Shown in pieces: positions 39,141 through 47,045 of a stretch of DNA of 64,000 nucleotides. This stretch comes from Escherichia coli (GTDB lineage: Bacteria; Pseudomonadota; Gammaproteobacteria; Enterobacterales; Enterobacteriaceae), in the NCBI RefSeq assembly GCF_003790525.1, contig NZ_CP033635.1. One strand, 5' to 3'. The position numbers and the translations under genes were made by a program. The notes under the pieces were generated by a model, which had not been told where the DNA came from, did no database searches, and was given only the letters and a program-made list of their open reading frames with translations. How positions within the stretch are numbered: position 1 is the first letter of the stretch; every line of letters begins with the position of its first letter.

Positions 39141-41621
39141 TTACTGGCAAATATAATTTCTACTTTCATCAATCTCTTTACCGAAGGTGATTGTGCATGA
39201 AAGTCCTTGTTGCTTATCAATTGCTACATTAACCGATGGCGGTACTTCATTGGTGCGAATAAATAACTGGCTTCCCTGACCGACAACGCCAATATTATGA
39301 CCATGGATATCATTGACTTCATAACCAAACATTAATGGTTGCCCATCCGCTCTTAACGCTTTTATAAACCAGGGCTTGCGCTGATCGGTATCAAAATTAA
39401 CCAGTACAACCGCGCCGCGATAAGGGGCGGCAATTTTCCGGTTGCCACGTAATTCTGCTTCGCTATCGCTTTGCGACACATCCAGCATCAGGTGATTTTC
39501 CCGATAAGGTGTCATTCCGTCGTATACCACCACTCCATTACGGTTTGTTGTGCGATATTTTTGCCCATTGACATAAGCATCTTTAATTCCTGGGGCATTC
39601 ATCACAGCAAACGTTTCGGAAAGACGGTTCGCCAGATTAACGCCACCCGACCAGGCGACAATGCCCCCAGAAACACTGGCTCCAGCCTGTCGATAAGTAC
39701 TCGACTGACTATAACTGCCATTCACTGTCGCAACCGGCGCGTTCCAGGTCAAATTCGCCCCAGCTGTCGTTTCATTTCCCTGATGCTGATAACTCAGGTT
39801 GACCCCATAGTTAAACTGATCCCGGCTTCCAACGGTTCCTGATAATCCCGTATTATTTGAGGCAAACCCCTGATCATCAAACGTCGTTGAGTTAGACATA
39901 TATATTTGCCGACGAGGCGTCGTAACGTCATCACCCCAATCAAAGGGAATCGATATAAAAATATTAAATCGTTTCTCTTCATGATGATTCTCGTCATAAG
40001 CCTGGCTTGCCGCGAGGGTATAGCTTATCCGCCGCCAGTTATTGGAATAACTCAACTGATAATCCTTACTGCTGCCGCTACGTCCCCAGTAATCTCGCCA
40101 TAACGTACTTAAGGACACAGAACCCCAGCCTTCTGGCAATGACTGGCTCATATTGGCAGAAAAGCTATTTTTACGGCCAAAATCGTTCTGGTAATAATCG
40201 GCAATGTCATAGACATCGTTTTCATCACAGCGATAATTATCTTTATTGTTTGCCCAAACGTGATCATTAAATGTCCGGTAATCACGCGATGAATAACGCC
40301 AGGCCGCAAGACCAAAACGCGTCGACGTTTGGCTCACAAATTTGTTGTAGGCAATTTGATAACTTTGCCCGTCAAACACATCGCCGTTGTCTTGTTTACT
40401 ATGCGACTTAGTGGCATCGACGGAAATGGCACCAATGCGTGTATTCCAGCCAGTCCCCAAAGTAAACGCGTAATAATTATTCGCGACCATCGAGCCGCCA
40501 TACAGCGTCAATAAATTATTAAAACCATACTGATAACCCACCTGGACAAATTCACTTTGTTTGCTCGCCCCTTCAATATGGCTACGACCCGCCGCAAAAT
40601 CATATTTCGACACGCCGGGTTGCAGCATATTTGGCACCGCTGCATAAGGCACCAGATAGGTGGTTACCGAACCGTCCGCCTCTTTCACGCTGACATCAAG
40701 ATCTGCTCCACCACCGGCCAACTGCAAATCTGTAATCGCGAACGGGCCAGGAGGAACCTCTTTCTGATAAACGACAAAACCATTCTGTTCAATAGTTACC
40801 AGCGCGTTACTCTGAGCAATCCCCTGCACCCGTGGCGTAAAATTTTGTTTCGAGTTAGGCAACATCTGCATATCACGAAACAACCGCACACCTCTGAAGC
40901 GAACAGAATCAAAAATATCGCTTGATGTGTACATATCACCCACGCGAAGCGTGCCGAGAAGTTGGGCAAATCCACGTTCCAGATACAGGGTATTGCTTTT
41001 CCACACCCCTGGATTGTTATTTGTTTTACTGAAACTGGCATCAGAATGCAGTTGCCACCCCAGTAAATTTAACCCGCTGTTAAAACGTACATATGTACTC
41101 TTGTTATTACCCGACGCTTTATAGTCGCTGTAATACTGACTCAGATAATAAGAGGTATAAAACGCATTAATACCCCGCTCCCAGTTTTCCGGTGGAACAT
41201 AGCCACTTTCCAGTTCTTCCACCCAGGCCTGCGGGACACTGAAATCGAGACGAAAAACCCCGATATCCCAGGTATAGCTCCCACCCTGAACAAGTTGCTC
41301 AAATGTTAAACATTGCTTACCGCTGGCGAAGTTATCGCTATTAATGCCTAACCGCTTGATAACTTCTCTTGATAAACATGTTTCTTGCGGGTTGTCTTTA
41401 ACAATAATCTCATATTTCCCGCGCCATTGCTTATTGACATAAATATCGATGTCATACTGCCCCGGTAAGGGTTGATTATCATCAAGACGAATATTTGCAA
41501 CCTGCTGGTCTTTCATTCCACCTATCATAAAATGGGTATCAAAGGTTTCTTCAGCTGCATAAGCTTCAATGCCGAGCAATAACGCTACGATTGCTGATGC
41601 AAGTGGGGTCATTCTCAACAT
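39141..41621 (-). CDS. yehB: Fimbrial outer-membrane usher YehB (826 aa)
   Basis: ORF 39141-41636 trimmed to ATG at 41621 (AGGAG 7 bp upstream); usher-family size and sequence. Confidence 0.9.
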   Translation of the reverse strand: MLRMTPLASAIVALLLGIEAYAAEETFDTHFMIGGMKDQQVANIRLDDNQPLPGQYDIDIYVNKQWRGKYEIIVKDNPQETCLSREVIKRLGINSDNFASGKQCLTFEQLVQGGSYTWDIGVFRLDFSVPQAWVEELESGYVPPENWERGINAFYTSYYLSQYYSDYKASGNNKSTYVRFNSGLNLLGWQLHSDASFSKTNNNPGVWKSNTLYLERGFAQLLGTLRVGDMYTSSDIFDSVRFRGVRLFRDMQMLPNSKQNFTPRVQGIAQSNALVTIEQNGFVVYQKEVPPGPFAITDLQLAGGGADLDVSVKEADGSVTTYLVPYAAVPNMLQPGVSKYDFAAGRSHIEGASKQSEFVQVGYQYGFNNLLTLYGGSMVANNYYAFTLGTGWNTRIGAISVDATKSHSKQDNGDVFDGQSYQIAYNKFVSQTSTRFGLAAWRYSSRDYRTFNDHVWANNKDNYRCDENDVYDIADYYQNDFGRKNSFSANMSQSLPEGWGSVSLSTLWRDYWGRSGSSKDYQLSYSNNWRRISYTLAASQAYDENHHEEKRFNIFISIPFDWGDDVTTPRRQIYMSNSTTFDDQGFASNNTGLSGTVGSRDQFNYGVNLSYQHQGNETTAGANLTWNAPVATVNGSYSQSSTYRQAGASVSGGIVAWSGGVNLANRLSETFAVMNAPGIKDAYVNGQKYRTTNRNGVVVYDGMTPYRENHLMLDVSQSDSEAELRGNRKIAAPYRGAVVLVNFDTDQRKPWFIKALRADGQPLMFGYEVNDIHGHNIGVVGQGSQLFIRTNEVPPSVNVAIDKQQGLSCTITFGKEIDESRNYICQ

Positions 41622-41636
41622 AGGCAGCTCCTGCAA

Positions 41637-42356
41637 TTAAATTTTGTCACTAATATAGTTGCCATGGTCATCGATAATGGTCAGATGCCAGTTATTTGCA
41701 TTATTACTTTTGACATTAACACTCTGACTTTCTAAGGGGGCAATCATAATAGTTTCATAATTGACTTTGACATTATTAGCTTTGACATCCGAAATCGTCA
41801 CCCAATTAGCTGAGTCATTTTTTATCACCAAACCATTGCCACTGCGATTTACCAGCAATTTTTTAAATGTCGCTTTATTTACCGGAGCAATACCCGCTGG
41901 CCGGTAAAACAACTTAATTCTGTTTTGCATCGCAAACTTCAGTGCATTCTTACCTTCTTGCTCTGGACTATTTGGTGGAATATCCAGAACATTCAGATAA
42001 AAAATGCTTTCTTTATTAGTGGGCAGTTTATTCGGCATAATTTTGATTTTTACTTGCTGCCCGGAATTTGCCCCTATTTTTGCCACTGGTGGCGTTAACA
42101 TGAAAGGAACCTGAATTTTTTCTGGTGGTAATGACGTATCGCCATCATCAATCCACGCCTGCAGCAGCGAAGAACGGTTTCCCTGGTTCATCAACTGCAC
42201 CATCACTTCTTTATTTTCTGCCGGGTAAATAATGCGCGTCCCGTAGATAACAATTCCGGCATGTGCAGGAAGGACCATAGAAAAAATGAGTAAAGATAAT
42301 AATCCTTTCATTTTAATGCCTCTTAAATTAAAAGGCCGCCATGGGATAGCGGCCAT
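41637..42356 (-). CDS. yehC: Periplasmic pilus chaperone YehC (239 aa)
   Basis: PapD-like chaperone sequence; the start may be the internal MKGLLSLLIF. Confidence 0.85.
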   Translation of the reverse strand: MAAIPWRPFNLRGIKMKGLLSLLIFSMVLPAHAGIVIYGTRIIYPAENKEVMVQLMNQGNRSSLLQAWIDDGDTSLPPEKIQVPFMLTPPVAKIGANSGQQVKIKIMPNKLPTNKESIFYLNVLDIPPNSPEQEGKNALKFAMQNRIKLFYRPAGIAPVNKATFKKLLVNRSGNGLVIKNDSANWVTISDVKANNVKVNYETIMIAPLESQSVNVKSNNANNWHLTIIDDHGNYISDKI

Positions 42357-42390
42357 GTTTATTACCTGGAGAAACTTACAATTTTATTTA

Positions 42391-42933
42391 TTAATCCTGC
42401 GCCACACGCATAACCAGAGAAGATAACACATCACCTGATTGCACTGAGTTATCTGTCAGTTTCAGGTATTTTGCTTTAAACGGAATAGCATATTGACCTT
42501 CCGCTGTTTTATAACTCTCAATGTTAAAAGGTGCAGAAACATCCAGGACATCGCTGTTATCACCTAAATAGAGATAGTAACCCACGGTATCGTTGCTACT
42601 GGCTATCGCCTTATCGTTACCGGTTATTTTATCGTTGGTAATCAACGAGAGTTTTACACCAGCAACTTCTTTCGGGCAGCTAATTTTTAACATGCTGCTG
42701 GTTACACCGACTGCATCATCATAGGTAGAATATTTAGCTTTACCTTCAAAGACACTGGTTGGTACAGTCGGCATATTAATACTTACTGAATCACCACCCG
42801 CTTCGAATTTACACGGAGATTCTGCAATATTCCCCTTAATAGTTAATGTTCCGGTATCAACGTCTGCAGCAAATACTCCAGCGCTCATAAAAAAAGAAGA
42901 AAAGACAGCGGCAGCAATAATTGAACGTTTCAT
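42391..42933 (-). CDS. yehD: Fimbrial major subunit-like protein YehD (180 aa)
   Basis: Signal peptide MKRSIIAAAVFSSFFMSAGVFA and fimbrial subunit fold features. Confidence 0.85.
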   Translation of the reverse strand: MKRSIIAAAVFSSFFMSAGVFAADVDTGTLTIKGNIAESPCKFEAGGDSVSINMPTVPTSVFEGKAKYSTYDDAVGVTSSMLKISCPKEVAGVKLSLITNDKITGNDKAIASSNDTVGYYLYLGDNSDVLDVSAPFNIESYKTAEGQYAIPFKAKYLKLTDNSVQSGDVLSSLVMRVAQD

Positions 42934-43154
42934 AATATGTTCCTTAATAAAATTTTATTTTTGGTTGTTAAGAGTCTGTATCTCTTGGAAACAAATTTCT
43001 CACATCAAAAAAGTTGCCGCAATGTAAACACATTGTTTTATTGATTTAAAACAAATTAACCATTGCAATATAAATACAAAAAACATTTAAGAGTATTAAC
43101 TATTTATCGCATCTATCAATTAATGTAGATTTATGTAAATGGTATTGTTGATAT

Positions 43155-43194
43155 CAATAAAAAAGCCGAAATCATTTATATAAATGATTTCGGC
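43155..43194 (-). terminator. Intrinsic terminator downstream of yehE
   Basis: Perfect inverted repeat GCCGAAATCATTT-ATAT-AAATGATTTCGGC (43165-43194) followed on the minus strand by a T-run. Confidence 0.7.
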
Positions 43195-43226
43195 TTTCTA
43201 AATGCAATTAAAATCAGGTTGCCAAA

Positions 43227-43508
43227 TTAATCGTAGCGATTTAACACGATTCGACGTTTGCTATCGCTACCTGCAACAACCACTTCTGTCGTTACACCTT
43301 TGACGGGCGAAGAAAACAGATGACGGGTGTCAACATTATACGTTAACTGACCACAATGCTGTTGAGGTTGACCATTAACCATAGCCATACTGCATGTTGG
43401 GGGACTGATCCTGCCATTAATCGCTAATGTGGCAGTCTCTGAAGAGAATGCGGGAGAAGCCAATCCATAGGCAAGAAAAATAATTCCTGACAGCCAATAC
43501 TTATTCAT
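43227..43508 (-). CDS. yehE: Small secreted protein YehE (93 aa)
   Basis: Signal peptide MNKYWLSGIIFLAYGLASPAFS; position between yehD and mrp. Confidence 0.75.
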   Translation of the reverse strand: MNKYWLSGIIFLAYGLASPAFSSETATLAINGRISPPTCSMAMVNGQPQQHCGQLTYNVDTRHLFSSPVKGVTTEVVVAGSDSKRRIVLNRYD

Positions 43509-43770
43509 TGAACGTTATCCCTGTAGTAAAGGTTATGCCTGGATAGAATGAGTGCATAACAAACTATAGCTGTACATCCACTACACAGCCACGAAGGATG
43601 ATAATGAAGCATTGCCTGTATGATCAATCGACTTTGTAGAGTTTCGGACGAAGGTCCGCAGAATATTCGCAGTATTAAATAAGTGTTCATTAATGCGGCA
43701 AAAACTAATACACCGCATCAATGTAACATCTCTGCGGTGTATGAAGAATAACCAGAATGGTTAATAGGCG

Positions 43771-44880
43771 TTAGACCGCGCGGAAGGAAATCTCGCCTGG
43801 AATGACTTCACCCTGCCAGTAGAGCTGAGCTGCAACGCGGTCAGCCAGCTGGCGGTAGATAGCGGTAAATTCGCTCTCCGGACGGCTGATAACCGTTGGC
43901 GTACCTTTATCGAGATCCTCACGTAAGGAGATGTGTAACGGCATCTGCCCCAGCAGCTGTGTATGGTATTTTTCAGCCAGTTTCTCTGCACCACCGGTAC
44001 CGAAAATCGGTTCATGGTGACCACAGTTACTGCAAATATGCACACTCATGTTCTCGACAATACCGAGCACCGGAACCTCGACTTTCTCGAACATCACAAT
44101 GCCTTTTTTCGCATCGATCAGCGCGATGTCCTGCGGGGTGGTGACCACGACTGCACCGGTTACTGGAATGTTTTGCGCCAGCGTCAATTGAATGTCACCG
44201 GTGCCTGGCGGCATATCAAGCACCAGATAGTCGAGATCCGGCCACAAGGTTTCCTGCAACATCTGCATTAACGCCTTGCTCGCCATCGGTCCACGCCACA
44301 CCATCGCATTGTCGTCAGTGACCAGATAACCAATTGAATTGGTTGCCAGGCCATGAGACATAATCGGTGCCATATGGGTACCGTCCGGCGAAGTTGGACG
44401 CTGATTTTCTGCGCCCAACATTGTTGGGATTGATGGGCCGTAGATATCGGCGTCCAGAATGCCGACTTTCGCCCCTTCTGCCGCCAGCGCCAGTGCCAGG
44501 TTTACCGCCGTGGACGATTTACCCACGCCGCCTTTACCGGAACTCACCGCGATAATGTTCTTCACACCGTTAATTCCCGGCTGATTCTTCACGCGTTTCA
44601 GAGTGGCTATGTTATGCGACAGTTTCCAGTCGATAGCTTTCGCCCCGGTGATGCGCAGCAGTTCGGCGCTACATTGCTCTTTTAACTCTTCGAACGCGCT
44701 ATGCCAGACAAACGGCATAACCAGTTCCACATGCAACGTGTCGTCCATCCAGGCGACATGGTGCAACGCTTTCAGCGTGGTGAGGTTATGCTTCAGGGTT
44801 GGGTGCTGAAAATTGGCCAGTGTCCCGGCGACCATTGCGCGCAAGGCTTCTGGTGATTTGGCCTGGGATTGTTCGTTCAT
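43771..44880 (-). CDS. mrp: Fe-S cluster carrier ATPase Mrp/ApbC (369 aa)
   Basis: ORF trimmed to MNEQSQAKSPEAL (AGGAG upstream); P-loop GKGGVGKS and CxxC motif. Confidence 0.9.
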   Translation of the reverse strand: MNEQSQAKSPEALRAMVAGTLANFQHPTLKHNLTTLKALHHVAWMDDTLHVELVMPFVWHSAFEELKEQCSAELLRITGAKAIDWKLSHNIATLKRVKNQPGINGVKNIIAVSSGKGGVGKSSTAVNLALALAAEGAKVGILDADIYGPSIPTMLGAENQRPTSPDGTHMAPIMSHGLATNSIGYLVTDDNAMVWRGPMASKALMQMLQETLWPDLDYLVLDMPPGTGDIQLTLAQNIPVTGAVVVTTPQDIALIDAKKGIVMFEKVEVPVLGIVENMSVHICSNCGHHEPIFGTGGAEKLAEKYHTQLLGQMPLHISLREDLDKGTPTVISRPESEFTAIYRQLADRVAAQLYWQGEVIPGEISFRAV

Positions 44881-45011
44881 CCCGACTCCTTTTTTGTATA
44901 GATAAACCATCAGCTGATAGTTTACCTGAAGAATATAGAGAAGTACTTACTTAACATTTTCCCATTTGGTACTATCTAACCCCTTTTCACTATTAAGAAG
45001 TAATGCCTACT

Positions 45012-47045
45012 ATGACTCAAGTCGCGAAGAAAATTCTGGTGACGTGCGCACTGCCGTACGCTAACGGCTCAATCCACCTCGGCCATATGCTGGAGCACAT
45101 CCAGGCTGATGTCTGGGTCCGTTACCAGCGAATGCGCGGCCACGAGGTCAACTTCATCTGCGCCGACGATGCCCACGGTACACCGATCATGCTGAAAGCT
45201 CAGCAGCTTGGTATCACCCCGGAGCAGATGATTGGCGAAATGAGTCAGGAGCATCAGACTGATTTCGCAGGCTTTAACATCAGCTATGACAACTATCACT
45301 CGACGCACAGCGAAGAGAACCGCCAGTTGTCAGAACTTATCTACTCTCGCCTGAAAGAAAACGGTTTTATTAAAAACCGCACCATCTCTCAGCTGTACGA
45401 TCCGGAAAAAGGCATGTTCCTGCCGGACCGTTTTGTGAAAGGCACCTGCCCGAAATGTAAATCCCCGGATCAATACGGCGATAACTGCGAAGTCTGCGGC
45501 GCGACCTACAGCCCGACTGAACTGATCGAGCCGAAATCGGTGGTTTCTGGCGCTACGCCGGTAATGCGTGATTCTGAACACTTCTTCTTTGATCTGCCCT
45601 CTTTCAGCGAAATGTTGCAGGCATGGACCCGCAGCGGTGCGTTGCAGGAGCAGGTGGCAAATAAAATGCAGGAGTGGTTTGAATCTGGCCTGCAACAGTG
45701 GGATATCTCCCGCGACGCCCCTTACTTCGGTTTTGAAATTCCGAACGCGCCGGGCAAATATTTCTACGTCTGGCTGGACGCACCGATTGGCTACATGGGT
45801 TCTTTCAAGAATCTGTGCGACAAGCGCGGCGACAGCGTAAGCTTCGATGAATACTGGAAGAAAGACTCCACCGCCGAGCTGTACCACTTCATCGGTAAAG
45901 ATATTGTTTACTTCCACAGCCTGTTCTGGCCTGCCATGCTGGAAGGCAGCAACTTCCGCAAGCCGTCCAACCTGTTTGTTCATGGCTATGTGACGGTGAA
46001 CGGCGCAAAGATGTCCAAGTCTCGCGGCACCTTTATTAAAGCCAGCACCTGGCTGAATCATTTTGACGCAGACAGCCTGCGTTACTACTACACTGCGAAA
46101 CTCTCTTCGCGCATTGATGATATCGATCTCAACCTGGAAGATTTCGTTCAGCGTGTGAATGCCGATATCGTTAACAAAGTGGTTAACCTGGCCTCCCGTA
46201 ATGCGGGCTTTATCAACAAGCGTTTTGACGGCGTGCTGGCAAGCGAACTGGCTGACCCGCAGTTGTACAAAACCTTCACTGATGCCGCTGAAGTGATTGG
46301 TGAAGCGTGGGAAAGCCGTGAATTTGGTAAAGCCGTGCGCGAAATCATGGCGCTGGCTGATCTGGCTAACCGCTATGTCGATGAACAGGCTCCGTGGGTG
46401 GTGGCGAAACAGGAAGGCCGCGATGCCGACCTGCAGGCAATTTGCTCAATGGGCATCAACCTGTTCCGCGTGCTGATGACTTACCTGAAGCCGGTACTGC
46501 CGAAACTGACCGAGCGTGCAGAAGCATTCCTCAATACGGAACTGACCTGGGATGGTATCCAGCAACCGCTGCTGGGCCACAAAGTGAATCCGTTCAAGGC
46601 GCTGTATAACCGCATCGATATGAGGCAGGTTGAAGCACTGGTGGAAGCCTCTAAAGAAGAAGTAAAAGCCGCTGCCGCGCCGGTAACTGGCCCGCTGGCA
46701 GATGATCCGATTCAGGAAACCATCACCTTTGACGACTTCGCTAAAGTTGACCTGCGCGTGGCGCTGATTGAAAACGCAGAGTTTGTTGAAGGTTCTGACA
46801 AACTGCTGCGCCTGACGCTGGATCTCGGCGGTGAAAAACGCAATGTCTTCTCCGGTATTCGTTCTGCTTACCCGGATCCGCAGGCACTGATTGGTCGTCA
46901 CACCATTATGGTGGCTAACCTGGCACCACGTAAAATGCGCTTCGGTATCTCTGAAGGCATGGTGATGGCTGCCGGTCCTGGCGGGAAAGATATTTTCCTG
47001 CTAAGCCCGGATGCCGGTGCTAAACCGGGTCATCAGGTGAAATAA
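45012..47045 (+). CDS. metG: Methionyl-tRNA synthetase MetG (677 aa)
   Basis: [29 protein letters not shown]... with KMSKS motif and zinc knuckles (CPKC...CEVC). Confidence 0.95.

Follow-up and report, generated by a model that had tools for sequence, protein, structure and literature searches.

The 293-bp intergenic region between yehE and yehD of Escherichia coli, which occupies positions 42934-43226 of the window (the whole 64-kb stretch of DNA that we analysed), is very probably a composite control region that combines the terminator of yehE with an H-NS-silenced and ArcA-repressed promoter of the fimbrial operon yehDCBA. Much of this control region is already known: it is an H-NS-silenced fimbrial promoter, a catalogued promoter island and an ArcA target, with a terminator of the ordinary kind. 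The present analysis adds the lack of unusual curvature, the compositional origin of the promoter-island signal, covariation in the terminator, and a conserved promoter module of about 150 bp. Yeh is among the few chaperone-usher fimbriae that occur in nearly all E. coli, and recent work connects the fimbria with the binding of pectin in the gut and, in EHEC, with the expression of virulence genes. Salmonella (where it is called Stc) and Citrobacter carry this ancient, core-associated fimbria in the same place (PMC3559732).

Gene context and nomenclature

In the RefSeq annotation apbC/mrp (43771-44910), yehE (43227-43508; DUF2574/YehE family), yehD (42391-42933; also in the list of open reading frames), yehC, yehB and yehA all lie on the minus strand, and metG lies on the plus strand, divergent from the yeh genes. 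The intergenic region studied here is exactly the spacer between the upstream gene yehE and yehD, the first gene of the operon, which encodes the major fimbrial subunit. A sequence-only reading of this DNA had named the genes correctly (RefSeq has yehD, yehE, yehC, yehB, yehA, apbC and metG in the same order), and its "yehABCD" operon contains the right genes in an order that does not hold, since transcription in K-12 runs yehDCBA. The nomenclature is moreover reversed between papers: in K-12 the operon begins with yehD, the major subunit, and ends with the adhesin-like yehA, whereas a structural paper of 2026 on UPEC has YehA as the major subunit and YehD as the tip adhesin, which is a trap for readers of the 'yehD' literature.

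The locus is widespread, as a 551-bp query across the site found matches in 5341 of 5426 complete E. coli genomes, where the annotation at the matches reads yehD (fimbrial protein) and yehE (YehE family protein). Compared with K-12 and other alleles, the window carries one extra A in the yehD leader at 42949-42952 (AAAATAAAATTTT), so that the offset between window and K-12 coordinates changes by 1 across these positions.

Base composition, curvature and promoter-like sites

With 24.6% GC (75.4% AT), against 50.8% GC (49.2% AT) for the entire window, the intergenic region is the most GC-poor stretch of its 293-bp length in the 64 kb; nowhere else does such a stretch drop to 30% GC or lower. Equally GC-poor segments of this length make up 0.05% of all those in the window, and every one of them overlaps the intergenic region. 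The strong AT bias claimed from the sequence alone, for which local AT content had been proposed as a check, is therefore borne out. TpA steps amount to 10.1% in the intergenic region versus 4.6% window-wide. The A/T tracts that the same reading described are present as nine runs of A or T of 4-6 nt; they are out of helical phase, and the intergenic region shows no AA/TT periodicity at 10-11 bp. Predicted curvature, the second proposed check, is not elevated: in a Bolshoy/Trifonov wedge model (27 deg/turn for a phased A6 control and 7.3 for a random one) the intergenic region reaches 6.7-6.8 deg/turn, on a par with the window mean (6.7), and composition-matched shuffles curve slightly more (8.2 deg/turn).

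The same spacer is one of 78 'promoter islands' in K-12 (Panyukov and Ozoline 2013, PMC3661553 Table 1), listed as island 2190229_357, i.e. with a length of 357 from position 2190229 of U00096.2, which corresponds to about 42919-43275 in the window; composition-based tools have flagged this island as a genomic island (PMC3661553). We scored promoter-like sites with an approximate sigma-70 weight matrix, counting those above the window's 99th percentile. On both strands together the intergenic region has about 31-32 of them, or 10.6 per 100 bp versus 2.0 window-wide, and this density is the maximum within the 64-kb window. Mononucleotide shuffles of the region yield 32.7 +/- 5.8 sites, equal to the real count. 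The dense promoter-like signal is thus a by-product of base composition without extra information, and the promoter-island property is itself compositional.

The terminator of yehE

At 43165-43194 the intergenic region contains a palindrome composed of GCCGAAATCATTTAT and ATAAATGATTTCGGC, extendable to 43162-43197, and on the minus strand TTTTTTATT comes next, a T6-containing U-tract at 43164-43156. The hairpin starts 30 nt past the stop codon of yehE, and its core comprises 13 bp and a 4-nt loop, to which A-U extensions are added. Folded as RNA it has an energy of -22 to -27 kcal/mol, with a z score of -5.5 relative to shuffled sequences. We aligned it in eight sequences, namely four divergent E. 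coli alleles, two other Escherichia species, the GTDB representative of E. coli and Citrobacter youngae; 98.1% of the stem cells are paired across this Escherichia/Citrobacter set, and five of the 13 stem pairs show compensatory changes on both sides (GCCG/CGGC, GCTG/CAGC, GCTT/AAGC and CCAT/ATGG among the examples). None of 500 shuffles reached the covariation score of the hairpin, and slid registers pair at only 30-47%. By structure and evolution the hairpin is well supported as a real intrinsic (Rho-independent) terminator of yehE, which the sequence-only reading had placed correctly to the base. Transcription of yehE from its own promoter upstream of 43508 would be halted here, at the stem (43197-43162) and U-tract, and the terminator, if as efficient as we presume, would insulate the fimbrial operon from upstream read-through.

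A consensus scan for promoters and terminators overlooked this element, probably on account of the A-U extension, which consumes part of the T-tract. The Term-seq supplement of Adams et al. 2021, the sole one searched, has no 3'-end entry for yehE or yehD. At a permissive E-value, an Rfam scan of 41000-45500 gave only sub-threshold chance matches of eukaryotic snoRNAs and miRNAs on the palindrome. BLAST also reported a second place per genome, which we rejected as a sign of a repeat family because it arises when the 36-nt palindrome aligns with its own opposite strand.

Several structural variants touch the terminator and its surroundings. In strain PSS-08-1 an IS1 lies within the last codons of yehE (43236-43244), close upstream of the terminator and flanked by a duplicated 9-bp target (GCGATTTAA); an IS1A sits at this span in three further strains among the matches listed. 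A deletion associated with IS5 in strain ES9 (39331-43193) has taken out yehC and yehD completely, the greater part of yehB, and the spacer as far as mid-hairpin. Within the operon, the yehD-yehC gap harbours a G+C-rich terminator-like hairpin at 42334-42354 (minus strand; GGCCGCTATCCCATGGCGGCC, then TTTTAATTTA), 37 nt past the yehD stop codon, which resembles the partial terminators after major-subunit genes of other fimbrial operons. The list of open reading frames runs yehC through this hairpin (239 aa from 42356), and RefSeq starts yehC at about 42311.

The yehD promoter and its regulators

A transcription start of yehD has been mapped to position 2190296 of NC_000913.2 (42986 of the window, minus strand), 52 nt upstream of the gene; it is a weak start, with three reads in one data set versus 65 for mrp (Kim et al. 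2012, PMC3415461 supplementary file 2). The string given upstream of it ends in GATGTGAGAAATTTGTTTCCA (PMC3415461). The 5' untranslated region is accordingly 52 nt long in K-12 and, with the extra A, 53 nt in the window. Park et al. 2013 have a 'no TSS' entry for yehDCBA (PMC3798270).

Judging from the position of this start, the promoter would consist of a candidate extended -10 element, TGA-GAAATT, at 43002-42994 and a candidate -35 element, TTGCGG, at 43022-43017 (both minus strand), separated by a 17-bp spacer. The extended -10 was flagged by a PWM scan independently of the start site, and both elements are invariant in the eight aligned sequences. Each hexamer matches three of six positions, with -11A, -7T and the TGn extension kept. 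The proximal half of the spacer would thus provide a weak sigma-70 promoter of the extended -10 class for yehDCBA. Two further candidates were rejected: TACATT at 43026-43021 (PWM 8.3), as a conserved -10 that does not fit the mapped start, and TTGATA-16-AATACT at 43119-43092 (minus strand), which came from the consensus scanner and is seen only in the K-12-like lineage.

ArcA binds just upstream of the start. Park et al. 2013 report a ChIP-seq peak at 2190299 and four direct repeats in 2190321-2190363 (PMC3798270); the published string matches the window at 43011-43053, i.e. at -25 to -67 from the start, where the binding region of phosphorylated ArcA lies inside a conserved block and overlaps the candidate -35. 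The ChIP signal at yehD was 3.9-fold in one of two replicates, with a box score of 12.3 bits, and yehDCBA was 5.4-fold derepressed in an arcA mutant (PMC3798270). Phosphorylated ArcA on the four repeats would cover the -35 and so add anaerobic repression, presumably by occlusion of the promoter. After transcription, CsrA may act on the leader. The Shine-Dalgarno sequence of yehD, AAGGAA at 42940-42945 (minus strand), includes the GGA of the ribosome-binding site (42943-42941) at which CsrA of EHEC binds the yehD leader in EMSA and promotes expression (PMC11287998); ethanolamine raises YehD levels in the same organism (PMC11287998).

For yehE a separate promoter has to be considered. A ChIP-seq peak of sigma-S RNA polymerase at 2190800-2190949 (about 43490-43639 in the window) was assigned to yehE (Peano et al. 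2015) and suggests a promoter of its own and stationary-phase transcription of this gene. Kim et al. 2012 list four more starts of low count (2-3 reads) at 2190749-2190798, which correspond to 43439-43488 on the minus strand in the 5' part of the yehE reading frame, and which were credited to yehD because yehE was absent from the gene set used.

Alternatively, yehE and yehDCBA could form a single operon that is transcribed from a promoter upstream of yehE, in which case the spacer would have no promoter and the hairpin would be a partial terminator, an attenuator or an element of RNA stability. All five genes are co-oriented, and in some papers the cluster goes by the name yehEDCBA, or yehE is cloned along with the fimbrial genes (including bioRxiv 10.1101/2024.06.20.599902). 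However, this reading leaves unexplained a transcription start inside the spacer, 52 nt from yehD, with an ArcA site just upstream that represses yehDCBA, as well as a strong T6 hairpin that has been maintained through compensatory changes and a block around the internal promoter that is far more conserved than its surroundings. In EHEC, yehD to yehA form one transcript, and complementation was achieved with a construct of Z3276-Z3279 that includes the native promoter and excludes yehE (PMC11287998). A single operon is therefore improbable; it is contradicted as the main route of fimbrial expression and possible as a minor route by read-through.

Silencing by H-NS

The sequence-only reading had further proposed a cryptic fimbrial promoter silenced by H-NS, and published data support it. 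The yehD/yehE spacer is marked as H-NS-bound in the ChIP data sets of Kahramanoglou and Oshima (PMC3661553 Table 1), yehDCBA is counted among the H-NS regulon and described as cryptic and repressed by H-NS (PMC5797941; PMC3559732), and the yeh locus is a silenced extended protein-occupancy domain (bioRxiv 10.1101/2024.06.20.599902). In the composite control region that we favour, H-NS filaments would coat both the spacer, with its 75% AT and many TpA steps, and the AT-rich yeh genes, and would leave the promoter near-silent in laboratory culture. Matches to the H-NS nucleation motif TCGATAAATT were set aside as evidence, as the motif is too degenerate for AT-rich DNA; the spacer has three, each with two mismatches, and a near-match, GCGATAAATA, lies at 43101-43110 (minus strand) in its distal part.

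H-NS is not the sole control, since ArcA, CsrA and a conserved core promoter act or lie in the same region. Overproduction of SlyA raises yehDCBA 3.6-fold (PMC5797941), a plasmid fusion was not a robust responder to SlyA, and overproduction of BolA induces yehD and yehC. Loss of protein occupancy at the yeh locus did not by itself induce yehDCBA (bioRxiv 10.1101/2024.06.20.599902), so that relief from H-NS is insufficient and an activator or a condition is still missing.

A conserved promoter module next to a freely evolving spacer

The intergenic region falls into two parts that evolve at very different rates. Adjoining yehD is a conserved block of about 152 bp (42934-43085, minus strand), which holds the upstream sites, the core promoter and the 5' untranslated region, and beyond it lies a fast-evolving AT-rich spacer (43086-43161) with 49-58% identity to the alleles of Citrobacter and O157:H7. 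Against Citrobacter youngae the proximal 152 bp are 79% identical (76% when the 18-mer used to find the locus is left out), versus 49% for the distal 76 bp and 49% for the hairpin and 3' untranslated region; the corresponding values for coding sequences are 58% nt and 43% aa in yehD, 63% nt and 52% aa in yehE, and 80% nt and 90% aa in apbC. Against the divergent allele of O157:H7 the proximal 152 bp are 88.8%, the distal 76 bp 57.9%, and the hairpin and 3' untranslated region 78.5% identical, compared with 56% and 63% at third codon positions of yehD and yehE and 98.9% nt identity in apbC. Every allele, including that of Citrobacter, keeps an AT-rich region of about 25-28% GC. By these identities, purifying selection acts more strongly on the proximal module than on the fimbrial genes, and the distal DNA keeps its composition and not its sequence. 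This pattern fits a distal part that serves only as AT-rich substrate for H-NS and as terminator, next to a proximal part with specific sites. The cross-species comparison started from an exact 18-mer inside the conserved block and catches only genomes that retain it; Salmonella and other Escherichia species were not matched by this exact scan, which is silent on diverged versions there, and matches in Weissella and Bellilinea were discarded as chance.

The O157:H7 stretch from yehE to yehD is a highly divergent allele in its own right (80.5% nt identity to the window in yehD and 76.5% in yehE), nearly identical to that of Escherichia sp. E1V33 and E. whittamii. Set beside the apbC identity, it would imply either that recombination has left a boundary between yehE and apbC or that the allele is old and balanced.

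Could the AT-richness simply be a passive relic of horizontally acquired DNA, in which promoter-like and H-NS-motif matches arise by chance? The shuffle results for promoter-like sites, curvature and A-tract phasing agree with this, as does the flagging as a genomic island, and the distal 75 bp are essentially unconstrained (49-58% identity). Yet the locus is an old one that Salmonella and Citrobacter share in synteny, and not a recent acquisition (PMC3559732), its low GC content recurs in every allele, the proximal 152 bp show clear purifying selection, and occupancy by H-NS and ArcA as well as their regulatory effects are documented. As an account of the whole region a relic is quite improbable, and it fits the distal half only.

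It is still less probable, and in our view very improbable, that the conserved block codes for a leader peptide or gives rise to a structured leader or a small RNA, instead of offering sites to DNA-binding proteins. The conservation is very high for non-coding DNA, a 21-codon reading frame lies inside the block (43033-42968, minus strand), and base pairing is conceivable between a UUUCC stretch and the Shine-Dalgarno sequence. Against this, no Rfam match came near any gathering score, the consensus fold is weak (-6.5 kcal/mol) and has no compensatory pairs, and a large share of the block precedes the mapped start. The ATG of the reading frame is lost in five of the eight sequences (to ATA or ACG), and the small reading frames of the spacer were all rejected as not conserved in the eight-sequence alignment. 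In the leader, at 42964-42985 (minus strand), an inverted repeat AAGAG-N7-CTCTT is kept in Citrobacter with a changed loop sequence; the same alignment shows no covariation for this repeat or for pairing between UUUCC and AAGGAA. A phase-variation switch, whether a fimS-like invertible element or a pap-like Dam/Lrp methylation switch, might be expected in a fimbrial promoter region with an imperfect pair of 15-nt inverted repeats (43036-43050 and 43148-43162), and is the least credible reading and effectively ruled out, given no GATC in the spacer versus 3.9 per kb in the window, no adjoining recombinase gene in the RefSeq annotation, repeat arms that are not kept in divergent alleles, and, among 5283 genomes with most of the spacer, matches that in every case listed are unbroken and keep one orientation with respect to the flanking genes.

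Within the composite control region, the segment from -67 to -100 appears, like the leader, to be conserved beyond the ArcA repeats and the core promoter, and would presumably have an occupant of its own. We tentatively consider a site for a dedicated activator or counter-silencer in the conserved block, an idea that is unlikely as it stands and that would fit an operon which stays off when only its H-NS-type occupancy is lost. If true, such a site would define the natural inducing signal of a 'cryptic' core fimbria. The separation of a freely evolving AT-rich spacer from a conserved 150-bp promoter module in any case provides a defined target in the hunt for a yeh activator.

Comparison with known systems

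The yehE terminator resembles canonical Rho-independent terminators in the G+C-containing base of its stem, the 4-nt loop, the U6 tract and its distance of 30 nt past the stop codon; it differs from them in a long stem (13-18 bp) that is mostly A-U and forms a perfect palindrome of 30-36 nt. The promoter shares with ArcA-repressed multi-repeat promoters (PMC3798270) the four direct repeats, phased at 11 bp and lying over the promoter, and the anaerobic derepression in an arcA mutant, but differs in its weak ChIP signal (one replicate), its low box score and the lack of a start site in the original study. As in other 'promoter islands' (PMC3661553), among which it is listed, the intergenic region is bound by H-NS and has the densest promoter-like sites of the 64-kb window; here, however, that density is compositional and goes along with one documented start site only. 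The closest likeness is to the cryptic chaperone-usher fimbriae yad, elf/ycb, sfm and yeh (Korea et al. 2010, cited in PMC5797941 and PMC3559732), of which Yeh is a member. With their H-NS-silenced promoters the yeh promoter has in common the AT-rich upstream DNA, the occupancy by H-NS, the near-silence in the laboratory and the induction by SlyA, and nothing categorical sets it apart from them, its distinguishing features being an unusually conserved proximal half and the ArcA repeats.
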